Below are positions 3,170 to 52,629 of a DNA stretch of 64,000 bases, piece after piece (position 1 is the stretch's first letter; each line of letters starts with the position of its first letter). Source of the DNA: Carcharhinus longimanus (lineage: Eukaryota); the NCBI GenBank assembly GCA_030264375.1, contig JASCQW010000119.1, positions 8,220,817 through 8,284,816 of the forward strand, written 5' to 3'. Both the position numbers and the translations under genes were made by a program. The notes below the pieces were generated by a model. The model worked only from the letters and a program-made list of their open reading frames with translations. It searched no databases and was not told where the DNA came from.

Positions 3170-5937
3170 CGGAAACATTTAAAACCCATATGCAGAGGAA
3201 CCAAGAAAAGAGGCAGCTGTGCTGGACGTAATACTGTGGAATGAACTAGACAATTGATTGAAGTGGTGGTGGGGGAACATGTCAGTGATAACAATCACAA
3301 CATGGTACAATTTGAACTTCGTTACGGAAATATGGATGCTTGAAAAGACACCTTTGATTTGGGAAAACGGATTTTAGTAAAACAAGGCAGAATCTTGCCA
3401 AGGCAGAAAAGTATTACACCAACAATTGAAACATCGACAGTCGAGCATTTGAGAGTATTCAAAATAAAAACTACACGGAGAGCGTACAATCCCAGTATGC
3501 TCCCCGTGGGGGATAGCTTGTTAAAACAAGCCCAGAGAACCATAGGCGACCAGGAGTACACAGGGTGCAACGAAAAGAAAAACAAAAAGTTTGATTTTAA
3601 GTACAAAGGGAGACAATATTTGACGGATAAAAAAATGCAGGGTGCAGTTCCAGAAATCAATTCGGAATGCAATGATAGAATGTAAGAACGTTCTTGCTTG
3701 TAACAGGAAGGCAACTCCCAAGATATGATATAAGTATAGCAATGGAAGAGTATATCCACAACATGCATAAGTTTCATTGGGATCAAAGGGACAATCTATG
3801 GGAGGATACAGAGAGCTCTGATAGAATATTGAATGGATATGTTACATGTGTCTCCACCCCATAAAAAAGGACGATGTTTTCGAATTCAGGGTGAATGACT
3901 GTGAGGTTGTTGATCAAATTGACATGGGAAAGGACAATGCATTTGAATTTTTCATATCATTTAAGTGGATCACTTTTCTGGTCCAGATGAATTGTGCCCT
4001 AGGATGATTTAGCAGGCGAGGGATGAAGTTGGAGGGGCACTGACTCAAAATTTCAATTGCCCCCATCCACAGATGACGTCACAGTAAAAATTCTCAACAC
4101 CAGGTCAAAGTCTAACAGGTTTATTTGCTAGCAAAACCCATTATATTTCAGAGCACTTGCTGCCCCTTCGTCAGCTGAGTGGGAGTTCTATTTACAAACA
4201 GGGCATTTAATGACACAAACTCAACTTACAAAATAATGATTGGAATGCGAGTCTTAAATGTCCAGAGAATGTGAGTGTAACTTTAATACTCGATTACCTA
4301 TAAATACTAGCATTCCAATCAGTATTTTGTAAATTGAGTTTGTGTCATATCTTGCCTTGATTGTAAATAGAACTCCCACTCACTTGACAAAGGGGCAGCA
4401 AGCGCTCCGAAAGATAATGTTTTTTGCAAACAAATAAACGTGTTGAACTTTAACCTGGTGTTTTAAGACGTCTTATTGTGTTTACCCCGATCCAACGCCG
4501 GCGTCTGTAAATCACAGGAGATGTGCAGGCAGCGGGAGAACAACAAATATGCTCCCACCTTTTCGGAAGGGTTGTACAGGCGAACCATTAAACTATAGAC
4601 TGTGAGACTCACGTCAGGGACATTTTACGATTAAGTTCTTAATTATAGTATCGATCTGATTTTGTAGAGGAAGTGTCAGAATAGGGACAGTGAGCTTGGT
4701 CAGGTGGAGGGCAAGACTAAGAAACTTGACTGTTATTTATTTTTGAGGAGGTGACAAGGTGTGCGGGCAAGGTTAGTGTAGCCGTTGTAGTTTATATGGA
4801 TTCCGGCAAATTCATTGACAAAGTCTTACATGGGAAATTTGTAAACAGGATGAATGCATGGATTATAAATGTAATGTAATAAAGATGATACGAAATACTC
4901 TCAGTTGTAGGAGGTAGAGTTGACGACTGAAGTCCGCCTTCGTGCCTGCAAACCCGTGTCCAGCGGCGTACCACAGGAATTTATATTGGGCCCCGTGTTA
5001 CTTGCCATTTATATAAATGCCATTAATAACTATTTGGGGTGTGGGATTAGCAAATTTACAGTTGGCATACAGGTTTATATTGAAGTGGAATGTCTTGTGG
5101 TCCAGGAGGACATAGGCAGAATGGTGAAATGGGCTGATAAGGAACAGATGGAATTTGACCCTGAATAGTCAGAGGGATTAATTTAAAAAAGAACATTTTG
5201 ACAAGAAAATATTCAATGTATGGTCGGACAATAGGCTGTTTGTGTGATTGACCTGTTTGACCACAGATCTCTGGTAGTGGAAGGGCATGTTAGTAAGGTG
5301 GTCAAACATGCTTGTGGCACATGTATCTTTAGCAGTCGATGCATAGCAGGGAAGCCAGCGAGTTTCATGAAACACTCTTAAGACCGCAGTTTGATTACCA
5401 AGTGCAGTATTGAACACCACGTTATCAGAAGGATGCGATTGCATTAGAAGGATGCAGAAGAGTTTCACCAGGACGCTGCCTAGAATGGATCATTTTTGAT
5501 ATGACGAGACAGTGTGTATTGATGGTTGTTTTTTCTTATTGGAGGAATGAAGACTTAGGGGCAAACTCATCGAGGTATGACGGTATGACGGGCATGGGCC
5601 GAGTGGAGGATGAAAATCTCTTCCCCCAATTGATGGATCCGTCACGAAAGTGCATACATTCCTAATGAGGGACAAAACGATTAGGGGTGGTGTTTGGAAA
5701 GTTTTTTTTTGGCAGAGGGTACTGATAACCTGGAATGTGCTGCTGGGACAGTGCTAGAGATAGGTCGCCTCATAACATTTAAAACGTATTTGCATGAGTA
5801 CTTGGCACATCATATCATTCAGGGCTATGGGCAACGATTTGTGCATGTTAATCTCTTTTTTTTCCAGATGCTTCTAATTATTCGTGGCAGACTCGATTGG
5901 TCGAAAGGCCGCTTGTGCGTTGTATGATTCCATGATT
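3170..5937 (+). mobile_element. Decayed CR1 LINE ORF2 (end of endonuclease, RT, 3' UTR), interrupted by a PLE
   Basis: Endonuclease C-terminus EEP..AVLD.IL.NE...VGEH..DNNHN; RT motif SSGVPQEFILGPVL.IYIN (ORF 4920-5168); WADKEQMEF; tail 'gtatgattccatgatt'. Many stops and frameshifts. Confidence 0.85.
4082..4513. mobile_element. PLE family B insertion made of two inverted terminal repeats
   Basis: ~4082-4260 is the reverse complement of ~4290-4480 (e.g. gagtgggagttctatttacaa / ttgtaaatagaactcccactc). The right end carries the extra tail 'ccccgatccaacgccggcgtctgtaaatc'. Confidence 0.8.
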
Positions 5938-19513: not shown

Positions 19514-21327
19514 TTGTTAGCAGTTAAGTCCACGGTGGGCAAGTGGGAGGCTTTCAAGGGCAAACTGAAAAGGTTGCAGGAAAGAGTTGTGCCGGTAAAG
19601 AGGAAGGATAGGAAAGGCAGGATTAGAGAGCCGTGGATTACAGGGGATATTGAGGACTTGGTCAGGAAGAGAGAGGCATATCTTAGGTCTAAGCAACTGG
19701 GAACAGAGAGAGCACTGGAGGAATATAGAGAGTAGAAAGTCTGACAACAGCAGGTTTAAGTCCAACCAATTTATATGATAGTAAACTCACACGCTTTCTG
19801 GGTTGTCCCTTCGTCAGGTAAATGGAGAGTTCTGGCCTCCGACAGAGCAGATAAAGCACAGACAGTTTACAGATTACTGATTAGAATGTGAATCGTTACA
19901 CTTAACCTGCTGTTCAAGTCCTAAAGTGGCCGACAATGTGAGTGGAAGGAACACTGATCGCAGGTTAAAGAAATGTGCATTGTCTCCAGACAGTACAGTA
20001 AGTGATGTTTTGCAAACCCAGACAAGTCACGGGGGTTACAGATAGTGAGTTTACTATCAAATAAATCGGTTGGACTTAATCCTGGTGTTGTCAGACGTTT
20101 TACTGTGTTTACCCCAGTCCAACGCCGGCATATCGACATCTGGAATATGGAGAGAGCAGGAGGGAGCTCAAAAGGGGTGTTAGGAGGGTGAAAAGGGGGC
20201 ATGAAATTGCTTTGGCTGATAGGAATAAGGAAAGTCCAAAGACATTTTGCTCCTATATTAGGAACAAAAGAGTGGTTAGAGTGAAAATGGGTCATTTAGG
20301 GACAAAGGAGGGGAACTATGCATTGAGGCTGAGGGAAATGGGGGAGATCCTGAATGAATACTTTGCGTNNNNNNNNNNNNNNNNNNNNNNNNNNNNNNNN
20401 NNNNNNNNNNNNNNNNNNNNNNNNNNNNNNNNNNNNNNNNNNNNNNNNNNNNNNNNNNNNNNNNNNNNAAACTGGGGCTCTTTTCATGAGAAAGACGGAA
20501 ATTAAGGGGGGATCTGATAGAGGTGTATAAAATAATGAAGGGTATAGATAGAGTAAACAGATGCAGGTTTTTTCCAAGATTGAAGACATATATCACGAGG
20601 GGTCACGAGCTAAGGGTCAGGGGGGAGAAGTATAACTTGGATAGTAGAGGGAGTTTTTTTTTCACACAGAGTGTTGTGGGGATATGGAATTCACTACCAA
20701 GCAAGGTGGTGCAGTCAGGCACGCTGGACTTGTTTAAGGATTACTTAGATAGGCACATGAGTGAAACAGGGGTGGAAGGTTATCGGAGACGGTTTTAAAT
20801 AAAGGACAGAGCCTCGGGAAGTTACTGGAAATCTAATGCTGCATGTGTTGATGTTTTATCTCTTTTACTCCGCAGGTGTGTCAGTCCACATTGTTGTCAA
20901 ACGAGGGGCATGCACACGGTGGGTCGTGCGTGGGCTGCTCTTGGATGTTTCGAGAGTGGCCTAGTACTTCGCGTAGTTGTGTGTGCTTAAAACTGGACCA
21001 GCAGATGGGCATCACAACATCTCAGCGAATATCACTGCTAGCTGTGCAGATACATGGATTTGGGCCATTGTCTGTGGGAGTTTGCACATTCTCCCAGTGG
21101 TTGCTTGGTTTCCTCCGGTTGCTCCGCTTTCCTCCCACACCCCAAAGATGTGCTCTTAGGCTGATTGATGTAACAAATTGTCCCTAAATTATTATCCCCT
21201 GAATCTGGTTTCCAATGGGGGTACCATAAGTCAAGGGAGGTGTCGGAAAAATTCTTTGTTAAGATGGTGGCGTGGGCTCGTTGGGCTGAAGGGCCTGTTT
21301 CCCGAGCTGTGTTGTTCTTTGTTCTTT
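19514..21327 (+). mobile_element. Younger CR1 (gttcttt-tail subfamily) nested in the older CR1; contains a PLE, a gap and a long 3' UTR
   Basis: KWEAFKGKL...REPWITGDIEDLVRKREAY; HEIALADRNKESPKTFCSYIRNKR; MYKIMKGIDRVN...SVVGIWNSLP; tail (gttcttt)n at ~21312-21329. Confidence 0.85.
19733..20141. mobile_element. PLE family B short insertion with inverted termini and 13-bp TSD
   Basis: 19733-19790 is the reverse complement of ~20046-20105. TSD ggaatatagagag (19720-19732) / ggaatatggagag (20142-20154). The CR1 peptide resumes afterwards. Confidence 0.85.
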
Positions 21328-34191: not shown

Positions 34192-34360
34192 TGATGTAGA
34201 GATGCCGGAGATGGACTGGGTAAACGCAGCAAGGAGTCTCACAACACCAGGTTAAAAACCAGGTGAGTCACCTAACGAAGGAACAGCGTTCCGAAAGATA
34301 GTGGCTTTTGCTTCCAAATAAATCTATTGGAATTTAACCTGGTGTTGTGAGACTTCTTAA
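34192..34360. mobile_element. Minimal (~170 bp) PLE family B insertion with inverted termini
   Basis: aaggagtctcacaacaccaggttaaa / tttaacctggtgttgtgagacttctt inverted pair. The complete tail is on the left. Degenerate TSD cattaatatgc / cattcatatgc. Contains 'ctaacgaaggaacagcgttccgaaa'. Confidence 0.8.
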
Positions 34361-36750: not shown

Positions 36751-37720
36751 TCTCAGGGATCTGTTTTGGGGCCACAGTTGTTTGTCATTTTTATAAATGA
36801 CCTAGATGAGGGTGTGGACGGATAGGTTAATAAATTTGTTCAAAACACCAAAGTCGGAGGAGTTGTAGACAGTGCGGATGGATGTTACATTTGCAGATGG
36901 ACTTAGATAAGCTGCCGACCAGGGCTGAGAGGTGGCAAATGGAGTTTAATGCGGAAAAGCGTAAGGTGATTCACTTTGGTAAGAGTAACAGGAGTACAGA
37001 ATATAGGGCTAATGGAAAGACTCTTGGTAGTGTCGACGAGCAGAGAGATATCGGTGTACATGTGTATAGATCCTTGAAAGTTGGCACCCAGGTTGATGAG
37101 GTTGTTATGAAAGCATACGGTGTGTTAGCTTTTATTGGTAGAGGGATTGAATTTCGGAGCCGTGAGATCATGTTGCAACTGTAAACAACTCTGGTGCGAC
37201 CGCACTTAAGTATTGTTTACAGTTCTGGTCGCCGCATGATAAGAACAATGTGGAGACATTGGAAAGAGTGCGGAGGAGGTTTACCAGGATGTCGCTGGTA
37301 TGGTGGGAAGGTCTTATGAGGAAAGGCTGAGGGACTTGCGGTTATTTTCGTTAGAGAGAAGAAGGTTAAGAGGTGACCTAATTGAGCCATGTAAGATGAT
37401 CAAAGGTTAGATCGGGTGGACAGTGAGAACCTTTTTCTTCGGATGGCACGAGGGGACATAGCTTTAAATTGAGGGGTGGTAATTATAGGACGCATGCCAG
37501 AGGTAGGTTCTTTACTCAGAGGGAAGTAGAGGCGTTGATTGCCCTGCCTGCAGCAGTTGTGAACTCGCCAACTCTAAGGGAATTCAAATGGTCAGTGCAT
37601 AGGCATATGGATAACATTGAAATAGTTTAGGTTCGAGGATCATTACATTCGTTCCACTGGTCGGCGCAACATCGAGGGCCGAAGGACCTGTACTGTGCTG
37701 TAATGTTCTAAGTTCTATCT
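36751..37720 (+). mobile_element. CR1 RT C-terminal part and 3' UTR (gttctat-tail subfamily)
   Basis: QGSVLGPQLFVIFINDLD..LQMDLDKL..AERWQMEFNAEK..KAYGVLAFIGRGIEFRS; tail 'ggtcggcgcaacatcgagggccgaaggacctgtactgtgctgtaatgttcta'. Confidence 0.92.
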
Positions 37721-46390: not shown

Positions 46391-49300
46391 ATATATTGTG
46401 TTTTTTTTCCCCAGAGAACACATGCAGCCAGTTGCTCAGTTCGACACAAAAAAAAATATATTTTTATTGAGTTTTCGAAATCCTTTCGAATGTGCGTGAC
46501 TGAAATAGGAATATTATCCAAAGTGTCAAGCTTATAGTTGCAAATCTTTGCTGCAATTAAAACACATGTTACACCCATAGCTGCCAAGATGCAGTAATAT
46601 GCTATTGTTTCTGTAGGGCAAAAAAAAATCGCATTTCAGCCATATTATCATGGATCACAGTGTAGTCTGTAGCAGTATCATTGGCAACCTGATCCAAAAC
46701 AGAAATAATTGTTTCAATATCGATTGACAATCTCATATACGCGTAGAGCGGAATCATTACACCAAGGAAGTTGTCTATTTCCGCAAGAACATTTTTTTTC
46801 CAAGATAGGAGATGGTAAGTATGATAAACATGAGGGAGAGAATACACAATGTAGCACGGCACTTCAACTTGATAGGTTGCCATGGATGTGTCTTGTTTCC
46901 ATAAATTCAATATGTGCCAATAAAAGTTGGATATTTGTGTTCAACCGAAAAACAAGGTGGAATATTCCAGGTTCGATCATTAATTGATAAATACATACAT
47001 ATCATCTCTCTATCGTGTTGATCCTTGCTTATGCCTTAGGCCACTAAACCATTCTTTTTTTTCATTCTCAACATACAATGTCCCTTTCAGTTTCGATTCG
47101 CATTATTTAAGATACAGCTGTTTGCTGGACTGAATGCGCTAAAAATAAAGATGAAAACCTAATGATGTAATCTTGCCCATTGATGTAAGATCTGTTTCTA
47201 TAATGGACTATGAAATCACAAGTGGCAGGAAAACCCGATGCTGCGATTATATGATCACTAAAAGGCTGAGTAATCTTGTCACACACAATTCAGTCTGACC
47301 ATGACAGGTACCCTGCGCGCAAAGGCATTCTTCCCTCAGAATGCATAGCAATGTGCGAGCAAACCCAACTATTCAGCGTACTGGCAGTTTCAGCGTAAGT
47401 GCCTGCCATACGGAAATACTTACTAGTATACAGTTCTCGATGGATTGTGCATATCAAACATAGTAAAATTAACAGTATGGAATGGAACATTTTACAATAA
47501 TTTTCATAATTATCGTCTGACAGTCTCCATATTCTCTTTCATATCTCAAACGTGGAGGAAAGATACAAAATCATTCACATAATCATGCCACAATTAGAGT
47601 GCCTTTAATTTCAAGTCTGGAGCTTGACAATCTAACTCAGAACTTGAATATTGGATTTCGTGTTCTCTTGGCATCGTAGCATATGGGTATGATCATGGAA
47701 ATCCTATAAACATAAACAAACTGTCCTGAGACATTACGTTATTATCGCATTAACTAAATCATTTCTATTTCATCTAAGTTAATAACCTCTTAAATTCATG
47801 TTGTCATGATCTGGCCTAATATAGTAGTTCGTCTGCAAATGCAAATCATCCCTGTTATCACTGTTGTGGCTACAAAAGCGTTGATGGTCCCCTGCTCCAC
47901 AAGATCAACCACCACAGTCGCAACATTGTTTTGACTGGATTCCTCATTCGGATTTCACCTGTGTCCTATTTTGACATCGCTTACTATAATTCTCATCAAT
48001 CAGGATACTCGTTTGTCTTGTGATTATTATGCTAAAAGGTCCCTGCTATCGGACCCCTCGCCATTTAGGAGCTATCATGATTTGAACTATTATCTTCGGG
48101 TGTAGGTTATTTAAAAGTGTTTTCTTTTGCGAATTCTATTCATTCTCTGTTCTGCTTTTGAATGATTACCTGCTTTTGACCAACTTCAACTTCTCCTTCT
48201 CGTGCTATTCGATCCTTTAGGAGGTTCATTGCTCTCCAAGACATCAATTGAAAAAAAAAAGTTTATTCCTGTTCCTCAAGATGGAGCAGCTCGTTGTCGC
48301 AGTAATATTGCTGGCAAAGCCTGCATTCAATTGTTTCCTTCTTCCTTTTAACTTTGGCTAAACTATTACTCGGTATCGCATTCATTTCCTTTTTTCTCTA
48401 CCTTTGTTGAACTCTCTAGGTAAAACGGCATGTGTAATCTCTTTTATCTGTAACATTTGGCAGACTTCTCCTCAATCTTTTACTGTTAATTGAGTTCCCT
48501 GGCTTGAGGTTAAGAGAAGCGCCATTCCCTAACTATTGCCTCATTCACCAATAATAAAGCTGCAGTTTTGGCTGTGCCGTATTTGCATAGGAAGGCTTCA
48601 ACCCATCGAGCAAACTGATCAATAATTACTAAAGAATATGAACTTTTCTTAATCTGTGATATCCATTTGCAAATATCTCCTGGGGTCTTTGGCCTCGGCT
48701 GTTTTCCTATTTTAACGCGAAATTGACGGCCTGATTCCGCTAAGGCCATAAGTGGATTCCACTAAGAATCGTTGACAGAATGTTGTTATTGGTTCCCCAG
48801 TGCCGTTCTACAAGCAACCGTTTCCAACTAAGTTGGGCATCTTATCTCTGCTTTTATGATATTTTCCATGTTGCACTTTTAATAAGGGTAGCAGTACTCT
48901 TTCTTGTGCGTTTTTTTTTATTTGTTTCCAGAATGCACCTTCTCAGTAATTCTGCTCCCCCCCACCCCCCCGCCCCCCACCTTGTGACTCCCACTTCAGC
49001 TTCTCTTCCTCGGACGCTTGTTGCTATGCGTGCATCTGAGTAATTATTGTATTATTACCAACTTGCAGTGCTGCAACTATGTTATTCACGTTCCTTCTCA
49101 ATGATGATCTAATATATATTTTACTGCTCTGTCAGCTTGACTCTTCCCCTTCTGGGTTTGACTGATATAAAATGGACTTTGTAACGCAGCTGCTTCTTAG
49201 GTACTATGGTCTTCATGCAGTGTATACTTAACAAAATTATCATGCTAGGCATGTTCACCGCTTAAGGTAATTCAACACTTTCTATCATATGGTCAATAAT

Positions 49301-49489
49301 TACCCAAAGGCATATCGCCTCTCTGTGTAGTTATTAATTCGTCTTCCTGCACTCCATTCTAAAGCATTAGTTAAAGCTAACAGCTCTGATACCTGCGCTG
49401 AATTACGCCCTGATATTTGTTCTCCTGCATCACATTCCAATGTCCATGCATCGGAATGTTCACCATCAATGTACTTTGTAGTTCCATCT

Positions 49490-50259
49490 GCTGCTGTGAA
49501 AATCCAGAGCTGTTTCCGAGGGTTTAAGGTTCGAGCACATATCAGGTACCTGCAGAAAATAGCGATCATCATCCAGGAAACATGGTGTGGATATTGTTAC
49601 AGGATGCATTTCAGAACCATGGTGCAGAGAGCATATTTTATCATGAAGATGAATTTCTACAATGAAATGGCTGCCAGGATACAGAAAAGTTGGCGTTGGA
49701 TATTATGTTCGAAAATGCATCCATAATTACTATGACATGAAAAAATATTTCAAAAGTCTTCGCATGAAAAATCAGATCATAAGGAAAGAACTGGAGGAGT
49801 ATGAAGAGACAAAAAAAATGAACGGGGGAAAAAAAAAGCTATAGAAGTGTAAGCGAGGAGAAAACAATACGAAGCCCGAAAGATGCATTTCCTCCTCATC
49901 ACTGAGCAGCTTCCAGGTATTTATAACTCTACATATTTGCTGTGTCCGAATGAAATGGATTGTAGGTTACAACAGGTCAGACTATTGACTCCGAATAAAC
50001 CTTGGAAGAAGGACACCACCGAGGGTCCTGTGGATCCATCAATGCCTGACATTCCATGCCCCTTTCCTCCATACGAGCTGTTGCCACTTGTAGGCAGAAA
50101 GAAACCACAGGATCCCTTTGGCGACATTGCTGAAGTATTGCAACAGCGCTACATGTCTTAGGGGCCAACCTTGCGGGTGGCAGCAACAATCACATCGGAG
50201 AAAGAAGCCAGAGAGGAGATGAAAAGAGAAGAATGGAGAAATCGTGTACACGATGGAAC
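49490..50259 (+). pseudogene. SPATA17: Processed (intronless) SPATA17 retropseudogene, 5'- and 3'-truncated, with IQ motifs
   Basis: Joined frames give AAVKIQSCFRGFKVRAHIRYL..AYFIMKMNFYNEMAARIQKSWR/GYYVRKCIHNYY..NQIIRKELEEYEE../..YEARKMHFLLITEQLPGIYNS..LLPLVGRKKPQDPFGDIAEVLQQRYMS*GPTLRVA..AREEMKREEWRNRVHD. This is collinear with vertebrate SPATA17 as I recall it. No introns; frameshifts at ~49696 and ~49815-49840; stops at ~49849 and ~50159. Confidence 0.92.
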
Positions 50260-50358
50260 AGTTTAGGTTAGAGGATTATTAGATTCGTTCAACTGGTCGG
50301 TGCAACATCGAGGGGCGATGGGCCTGTACTGCGCTGTAACGTTCTATCTATTCTATCT
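50260..50358 (+). mobile_element. CR1 3' terminal ~100 nt fused to the SPATA17 retrocopy
   Basis: By hand alignment, 77 of 87 nt are identical to the CR1 tail at 37624-37710; ends in ttctatct repeats. Confidence 0.92.
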
Positions 50359-52629
50359 ACATAGAAGGTAAACGGCTCTTCACCTGTGAGTGGTTCTTCT
50401 GCTATACCTTCATTTATCTTCTCATTACCCTCTGAAGAGCACCATGGCTATGTTCCTTGGACTGCACTTTTCCATGCATGATGTTTCTTCACATCTCTGT
50501 TGATTCCTACGTTCCTGTCTCGTGGCAATAGACTTGCTTTCCCATTTTGATTATCATTCAGGAGAAAAACATTTCAATCTCCATCTTTCTCAAAGCTTAG
50601 CAATTGTATGAGGACATTGAATAATTATGTTTGCCATCGCTGTGAGTGGGAATCAAGATCTTCCTCTCCATGATGAATATGTTACTCCTCTCACATACTG
50701 ATGGATAGCTTTAGCAAATGAATCCAGTTGGGCTGAGCTGTAACCCACTGGTATTAGTCTCTCTTCATGTTGTTTGGTGCAACTGTTTCTTACATTCCAT
50801 CGTGCCCGTGACAGAAATGAGAAACAACTTCGTAAGGTCTTTTGTTCTAAGGCAGGGTTTTCACCTGAGCATGCTTTAATTCGGAGGACGTCTGTGATTT
50901 TCTTCACTCCTCATCTCATTCTATTGCAACCACTCCTTATCATTTTCATCAATTCTGTAAGTTTTTGCCAATTCTGCATAATATTGCACAGATTCCCCCA
51001 ATGTCCCAACACTTCCCTTACACCTGTAATGGTAAGTGGTCTATTCACACTAAACGTGGCTTGCTTGAGATCTTCCGAAATTCCTTCACGTTGGGATATG
51101 TTTTTGTTTTGTACCTTGGGATATGAAATATCCTGTATCTGCCACCATTTGATGTCCCAACTGATTTTTCTTTCTGGTATTCAAACTAAGATCCATGTCC
51201 CGAGTTATTTGAAGCCCCCTTGTGTATGGCTAAAAAAGTCCTTTTGAATCTCCGATGCATTCAAAATGTTGCCATAAATATTGAAATTGTCGTACATATA
51301 CATTCTAAAGATTGCATTGTCCGTGCCATGTTCTTGTGAACAAATCGCTGGTCTGCTCTGGAACCCTTGGTGCAGACTGCTCCGGAACCTCGGTGGCAGA
51401 CTGCTCCAAGTGTGTTGCTCATTCCTGACAGTGAATACAAAATTATCCTCGTGTTCCTCAAACCAAGAATCTATTAGCTGTTTCTAGTACTGCAAATATC
51501 TCAATGTATTCAAGATGTCTGCTGGATTTGCCGTTGTGGAGTTATGTTTAGTTGCATAGCAATTTACTATTGCATTATTGATCGTTAATCAATAACTGCC
51601 ATCTGGCTTCCTTGTTGGTCAAACAGGCGAATTAATCTCATAACAGATTGTGGATCCAGCCTACAATTGTGTCTTTGTGTCGCGCTTCTAGAGACATTGC
51701 AGCCTTTCATCTGAGCCCATAGAATGTTCTTATACAACTCATGGCACCTTTTGCTGTTAATTATAGCTGTCAATAGTTTTATTTGGTCAATTCCTGAAAA
51801 AAAAAAGTTCTCTGTTGAACTTATCCAAATTTAGCCNNNNNNNNNNCTCGCTCACTCAATAACGAGTTCTTAAATCCCCCGTAACTTTTGACAACTGTAT
51901 AGCCTATGCGGTTTTCGACAAATTTAATTACTCATTTATATAGATGTCCCGGTGTCTACCAACATGATTCAGGGTTGGCTTCGGAACTGCTTCTCTATGT
52001 ATTCAATGCGCTCTGCCTGCCGTCTCAAGAGCAGTTAATTGTAATTTCTGACTTAACTCTGCAATTCGACATCTGACGTATTGGCTGTTCCTCCTTGGTT
52101 ATGCATTACAGGCTGGGATCATGATTTCGCTGTGATTGGACCTTACCCTTCTCTACACGCACATATTTTGCCCAAATCAAAGAAAAAATATCATATCAAC
52201 ACTGATCTTGTGACAAATGTCACATTGCCCTTAGTTACTCAGATTATTTTCTGTGGATCTGACTTGCAAGTCTAAGAAATGTGTTATTGTTTTCCACATG
52301 CAAAGCACATTTGAACGAATATTCGTTGTTAACGATCAGACTGTTCGCGAGTCATTTTTGTGTTCTTGTGTTTTTTTTTAGTTCTGATTTTCATTACTCA
52401 ATGTAGTGCATCCTGATAATTATTCCCAGTTTAAACATTAGTACGGATATTTCGAGACAGAGATGAACTAAAACACATTTTGAACACTCCCAAAAAGATA
52501 TTGCCATCCCAAGTAGGGTTTTTTAAACATTTCGCTATCTGCATAAGACCTGTATGTGTTCTTTTCTTGGTATTCTGATGCAGATTAATCAGTTTCAAAA
52601 ATAGCCATCGGTAATGAATTGTGCCGACA

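Follow-up and report, generated by a model that had tools for sequence, protein, structure and literature searches.

Chimeras in which a cellular RNA, mRNAs included, is joined to the 3' end of a LINE form an established class of insertion, and stringent LINEs are known to make them with U6. Chimeras of mRNAs have been described for L1 (PMC2104539, PMC11838501) and those of U6 for the stringent L2 and RTE LINEs (PMC4476161), while CR1 has been held not to copy host mRNAs, its own tail being required (PMC5470649).

The window analysed here is a stretch of 64,000 nucleotides of Carcharhinus longimanus DNA. At positions 49487-50358, an intronless piece of the testis gene SPATA17 is joined directly to a 105-nt 3' tail of CR1 type, and poly(A) is absent. 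The SPATA17-CR1 unit is a dead chimeric retrocopy, made up of seven spliced exons and a CR1 tail inside one 4-bp duplication. An initial annotation, made from the bare sequence, had given this structure for 49490-50358, and its outline and coordinates were correct, since the seven parent exons, the tail match and the ATCT repeats were all recovered. The features are the following.

48510-51180, minus strand: host element, an old decayed retrovirus-like pol region with ends not delimited, its RNase H-like part interrupted by the insertion
49486-49489, plus strand: left ATCT of the 4-bp duplication, the last 3 nt of which (TCT) also match the mRNA
49487-50255, plus strand: processed copy of SPATA17, truncated at the 5' and the 3' end, seven exons, placed by DNA match to the parent exons
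49487-49545 (partial), 49546-49627, 49628-49678 and 49679-49783, plus strand: exon pieces of the SPATA17 copy
49784-49909, 49910-50110 and 50111-50255 (145 of 149 nt), plus strand: exon pieces of the SPATA17 copy, continued
50254-50255, plus strand: mRNA/CR1 junction, with TG common to both partners (the family match starts at 50254 and the parent match ends at 50255)
50254-50354, plus strand: CR1-type LINE 3' end, 5'-truncated, with a GC-rich stem-loop region and terminal TTCTAT-type repeats, placed by family alignment
50355-50358, plus strand: right ATCT of the 4-bp duplication, overlapping the terminal repeat of the tail
37300-37720, plus strand: independent longer copy of the same CR1 family, used for comparison only

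The human mRNA/lncRNA-LINE-1 chimeras of Law & Burns (PMC11838501) resemble this unit in having spliced exons in sense orientation 5' of the LINE, one duplication around both parts, a long intron after the last included exon and a parent gene without a matching LINE. They were made with the relaxed L1, mostly near full length, they carry mostly first exons and their joint often lies exactly at a donor, whereas SPATA17-CR1 has a CR1-type LINE of only 105 nt, seven internal exons, a joint that falls 4 nt before the donor and a 4-bp duplication. The U6-L2, U6-Mon1, U6-RTE and U6-AnolisSINE2 chimeras (Doucet et al. 2015, PMC4476161) share with SPATA17-CR1 a cellular RNA that is truncated at its 5' end and followed by the tail of a stringent LINE; they have short duplications of 1-9 bp, and U6 equivalents are present in the shark genome (8/30). 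Their passenger is an snRNA, whereas here it is a multi-exon mRNA entered internally. Partners truncated at the 3' end, U5 and U3, are on record in the same work, where the single CR1 case (turkey) was unresolvable through a gap. The bipartite chimeric retrogenes of mammals and Magnaporthe (Gogvadze et al. 2007, PMC2104539), with mRNAs among the listed 5' partners, have the same orientation of both parts, a direct join, a 5'-truncated LINE as the 3' part and short direct repeats, as does the unit described here. The 5' parts reported there are full-length RNAs; measured against the definition of Buzdin and Gogvadze, SPATA17-CR1 thus has the directly joined 5'-truncated LINE in the same orientation but an mRNA part that is cut at both ends. 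PittSINE is likewise proposed to have arisen by a tRNA-CR1 template switch, with the CR1 reverse transcriptase passing to a cellular RNA (PMC5729268). The outcome there was a mobile SINE family, whereas SPATA17-CR1 is a single dead copy; a LINE tail in the parent transcript and multiple copies, as in a SINE-like family, are not seen, no such tail having been found in the parent locus and only one copy among the candidates scored. Our literature search, with most subscription papers and supplements outside it, found no description of a CR1 tail joined to spliced mRNA, whether in sharks or in other organisms. Within the established class of LINE chimeras, SPATA17-CR1 differs by pairing a stringent LINE with an mRNA passenger of seven exons that was entered internally.

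The SPATA17 copy spans about codons 34-288 of 370 and is 93% identical to the parent exons, with 51 mismatches in 767 aligned nt and 6 gap columns. It contains frameshifts and stops while the parent frame has no stop, and pN is 5.2% (0.052) and pS 12.5% (0.125) for both branches together; the best named relative of the copied protein is Mustelus asterias SPATA17 (82%). Each of the seven parent exons has an AG before it and a GT after it, and in the copy they follow one another intron-free across six junctions, where several had been expected. Both marks of a processed pseudogene, precisely removed introns and decay compared to an intact parent, are therefore present. Those of a canonical L1-type retrocopy are not, as the copy ends within the coding region without an A-tail and the duplication is 4 bp. 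The coding sequence had been said to stop at RNRVHDG; the final G comes from CR1, and the parent reads RNRVHDD.

Five of the parent exons lie in order over 66 kb on one contig (G000:C99). The remaining two are on C148 (L006) and C72 (L005). At the places where they would be expected, C99 is interrupted by N gaps of 5422 and 2564 nt, which points to misplacement in the assembly of what are most likely parts of one gene. A DNA search of the 2.68-Gb assembly with 49490-50255 gave eight matches from eight candidates, namely the window itself and the seven single exons, and no further SPATA17 retrocopy was found among the candidates scored (8/8). An exonised CR1 tail in the parent gene, which the initial annotation had set against its own reading, did not turn up: in the 29 stretches of the parent locus (about 284 kb), no sense copy of the tail family was found, only short matches to the hairpin region. 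The parent intron downstream of the junction exon has one such short match, in antisense, and 985 N bases.

Counting the right ATCT copy, which overlaps its terminal repeat, the tail is 105 nt long (50254-50358). It differs at 7 of 93 columns (7.5%) from the commonest letter of 29 family copies, and the identity of 77/87 reported earlier to the CR1 copy at 37624-37710 was reproduced. These 29 other copies all share one upstream sequence that the window unit lacks. In a longer member of the family (L019), the tail is continuous with a non-LTR reverse transcriptase ORF, the ORF2 upstream of it having an RVT_1 match at E 1e-11. We provisionally take the family to be CR1 and not L2, from motifs at the C-terminus of ORF2. 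The terminal repeats were seen directly, and the stem-loop is a prediction in 20 tail copies, with 0/24 compensatory pairs and hence no covariation. In a search for host mRNA upstream of other family members, 0/48 stop-free pieces from the flanks of 12 of the 29 copies matched Pfam, which is a weak test; in the 17 copies left out, the flank was N, ran into a contig end or continued as CR1.

The unit interrupts an element with 16 other genomic matches at 66-82% identity, presumably retroviral (ERV) to judge from its retroviral pol motifs. The RNase H label of the left flank corresponds to a weak Pfam match (E 0.025), below the cut-off. When the two flanks were aligned separately to the 16 paralogues, they lay exactly 4 nt apart in 9/16, six of these reading ATCT; in the rest, one had 3 nt between the flanks and six were disturbed by indels or poorly aligned. 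The bounding 4 nt are thus present once in the paralogues and twice in the window, which means that 4 nt were duplicated and none lost. Both the ATCT bounds at 49486-49489 and 50355-50358 and the proposal that paralogous ERV copies would show an empty site held up on this comparison. Direct repeats accordingly surround the whole chimera, although the repeat is short and partly ambiguous through its overlap with the tail repeat and the mRNA. On direct inspection, the target site is without the T/A-rich L1 cut site. Duplications of 3-5 bp have been given for L2/CR1 and of 13-15 bp for L1 (PMC4245944). In one host-element copy (L060/L064, G000:C1:112226240-112228551), the right flank is matched twice, at a distance of 2 kb and in one orientation, which reflects a local duplication there. 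Elsewhere in the window, at 4096-4462, 19724-20140 and 34218-34359, there is a family of short elements with inverted arms, also found within one retrocopy (L200) and beside another (L202).

Eight short-read contig runs were compared for the presence of the unit in other organisms, with X1 set aside as possibly of the same source. Four other organisms (B-E), up to 6% diverged, have contigs with parts of the unit at this site, and organisms D and E differ by 4-6% from the window. The 5' junction was bridged in X2, X6 (organism B), X13 (D) and X16 (E), and the junction from tail to flank in X2, X12 and X15 (organism C), X13 (D) and X16 (E); spliced SPATA17 stretches were present in X2, X6, X13, X15 and X16. 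The mRNA/CR1 joint was bridged only by X1 and by one contig of organism D, at depth 2 over 50226-50649, which is gap-free across the joint and in the same register as the window and which has 30 nt on the mRNA side, one below our bridging rule of 31 nt. Within the eight runs, there was no contig spanning the whole unit, no orthologous empty site and no site with one part alone. Organism F gave parent exons only, its flanks being without cover. The contigs of other organisms rule out an assembly artefact. Joints from 49429 to 50378/50383 were rejected, as their sides are shorter than 30 nt and they probably come from paralogous copies.

CR1-type machinery makes chimeras in this genome. Among the 30 best U6 copies, eight are followed within 12 nt by the head of a tRNA-type SINE in sense orientation (7) or by a CR1 tail (1). 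The background per random site in 418 kb was about 0.1% for the SINE head and 0.3% for the CR1 tail, the latter being a lower bound with an incomplete repeat library. The SINE is presumably HE1. The loci are as follows.

L108, L116, L121, L125, L126, L130 and L133: U6 with a sense tRNA-type SINE within 12 nt
L110, G000:C133:13336202-13336308, minus strand: U6 followed after about 10 nt by a CR1 tail of ~150 nt

Since U6-LINE chimeras can form by RtcB ligation, this result does not single out template switching. Other U6 copies are followed by sense LINE-like sequence, directly in L107 and after 50-70 nt in L127 and L135, and in L119 (G000:C150:23485840-23485942, plus strand) U6 runs directly into what looks by eye like 5S rRNA, possibly a U6-5S or U6-SINE3 chimera.

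The initial annotation also saw in such chimeras a route to retrogenes in a CR1-dominated genome. This was not supported, as the assembly has plenty of A-tailed processed pseudogenes, namely of RPL30, RPS12, RPL7A, EF1A and RPLP1. Gene-family searches showed that processed pseudogenes of RPL30, RPS12, RPL7A, EF1A, RPLP1/2, CCT8 and alpha-tubulin are common, at ~80-96% identity to their parents (L198-L220, L268, L269, L138, L162, L223); no processed copies of GAPDH or HSP90 were found among the matches. We classed 17 retrocopies other than the SPATA17 copy, leaving out L138, L210, L213, L214 and L215, the 3' ends of which are at a contig end, in a gap or unmapped, as well as every intronless match to the actin family and L158/L159, which are intact CCT genes without introns. 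At least 9 of the 17 (L199, L201, L202, L203, L205, L207, L220, L136 and L268) end in an A-rich tail at the 3' end of the parent. An enzyme that accepts poly(A) has therefore been active here, which removes the premise that chimeras are this genome's way to retrogenes, and insertion of the SPATA17-CR1 type is a minor route in this genome. The RPS12 copy L209 (1384-1733) is cut off in the coding region at an A-rich spot and has a flanking repeat of 9 bp, as a tailless, internally primed copy. The intact intronless CCT8-like and CCT6-like genes (L158 and L159, on C182 and C61) and a dozen long intronless actin-family matches (L076-L087) are probably old functional retrogenes or single-exon genes.

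Only one of the 17, the EF1A copy L136, has a 5'-truncated sense CR1 tail (~205 nt) that starts no more than 5 nt from its A-tail. The copy was placed by scaffolding in an EF1A gene intron, with a gap on either side (L136/L147, G000:C162:120964556-120966962, minus strand), and its 5' end is in a gap. An RPL7A copy (L206:1179-1970) lies in register inside a sense CR1, preceded by about 95 nt of that CR1 and followed by the remainder, with no clear duplication; insertion into an existing CR1 and a double template switch are both candidate explanations. L136 is the best candidate for a second mRNA-CR1 chimera, neither copy being proven. An RPS12 copy (L199) is followed by an old CR1-like stretch with a start that could not be fixed, and the alpha-tubulin copy L223 was rejected as a direct join, the CR1 being about 120 nt away.

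How the two parts of the SPATA17 unit came together has to be read from its joints. At the mRNA/CR1 joint, the overlap is the TG alone, and an overlap of at least 2 nt is expected by simple arithmetic in ~16% of cases; the junction is therefore no positive evidence for a switch as against a ligation. The short similarity proposed to have helped a switch (atggaacag vs attgaaatag) turned out to compare CR1 with CR1. The 5' joint has an overlap of 3 nt, TCT (49487-49489), that fits both target and mRNA, with at least 3 nt expected by chance in ~5%. The parent exon continues for 4 nt past the junction to a GT donor, and the next exon is 55,737 nt away, across the longest measurable intron of parent SPATA17. 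By a rough estimate, only a few percent of random breaks would fall as near to a donor. On the CR1 side, no AG acceptor is present at the joint.

We infer with good confidence that the insertion was primed on the CR1 tail, because the unit ends in the tail on its 3' side, has a duplication of CR1 length and lacks an A-tail. The earlier claim that both parts arrived as one insertion is well founded: a 4-bp duplication encloses the whole unit, paralogous sites are empty, the parts co-occur in related organisms, the parent intron is without a CR1 tail and the ages match (roughly 5-6% for the mRNA part and 7.5% for the tail), which we count for a single insertion. The course of events that we favour as probable is a one-step insertion in which a CR1 reverse transcriptase, having primed on the RNA of its own element, went over to SPATA17 RNA as its template. 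The CR1 endonuclease would have nicked the old retroviral-like element, and the nick would have primed synthesis at the terminal repeat of the CR1. Some 100 nt further on, the enzyme would have left the CR1 RNA for SPATA17 RNA at the 2-nt overlap, copied about 770 nt and stopped, the 5' end being joined through the 3-nt overlap. More speculatively, the second template could have been a nascent, already partly spliced transcript with its end at the donor of the 55.7-kb intron or close to it, in which case the enzyme would have annealed at TG and skipped the last 4 nt of the exon. The position of the junction 4 nt before the donor of a long intron might hint at such a template; in this one case, it favours neither switching nor joining cleanly.

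A template switch had already been proposed for this locus and is still the likeliest mechanism, but RNAs joined before copying would leave the same single-insertion signature, and an overlap at chance level does not tell the two apart. In that case, RtcB-type ligation, or aberrant trans-splicing near the donor with loss of a few bases, would have produced a chimera that the CR1 machinery then retroposed through its tail. Ligation by RtcB before reverse transcription has been shown for U6/L1 (PMC6789731), and 6 of 17 human mRNA-L1 chimeras end precisely at donors, with downstream introns of a median of 48 kb (PMC11838501), a setting to which the SPATA17 joint, 4 nt from the donor of a 55.7-kb intron, comes close. 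The joint is nevertheless off the donor and faces no acceptor, trimming would have to be early since organism D has the same register, and the human cases, mostly first exons with near-full-length L1, are unlike SPATA17-CR1; we therefore regard prior joining as unlikely, if a serious competitor. An exonised CR1 that once lay in the parent intron, giving a cis chimeric transcript that was retroposed before the CR1 was lost or hidden in a gap, would follow a known L1 route (RAP1GDS1; PMC11838501), and the 985 unsequenced bases of the intron leave space for it. The parent locus has no such CR1, the joint is neither donor nor acceptor, and a tail-bearing transcript would tend to give several retrocopies whereas there is only one, which makes this route very improbable.

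A history of two independent insertions, in which an L1-type SPATA17 copy and a CR1 fragment hit the identical point on different occasions, could draw on the abundance of poly(A)-type retrocopies in the assembly and on the precedent of L209, an RPS12 copy cut off within the coding region with a repeat of its own. Here, neither part has its own duplication and a single one of CR1 length encloses both; no A-tail is left, the ages agree and no run shows one part alone. We consider such a coincidence improbable. Capture of the mRNA by the reverse transcriptase of the surrounding LTR element would account for a copy that sits within an LTR-type element and is cut short at its 5' and 3' ends, as known from LTR-mediated retroposition (PMC5131818). 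The copy is antisense to the host pol, however, and replaces no host sequence, a LINE tail and a duplication are present, and no examined paralogue contains a SPATA17 copy. Its orientation and the empty paralogous sites largely refute this explanation, and we give it almost no weight.

In conclusion, a CR1-primed insertion followed by a template switch is the reading that we prefer, and the locus indicates that stringency limits the priming of CR1 and not what is copied afterwards, as ~770 nt of spliced coding mRNA were carried by a CR1-primed insertion. The SPATA17-CR1 unit is a presence/absence marker common to several related species and can serve as the seed for a wider census in sharks and in birds, turtles and crocodilians, the genomes of which are poor in L1. 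It is conceivable, though we hold it to be doubtful, that a stringent CR1 reverse transcriptase jumps onto spliceosome-bound RNA, which would account for both the U6 chimeras and the SPATA17 copy. If true, CR1-dominated vertebrate genomes would hold overlooked retrocopies that are capped by a LINE tail, lack poly(A) and end at splice donors. Through them, genes would be copied without any need for poly(A), and intermediates of co-transcriptional splicing would be preserved as fossils in the genome.
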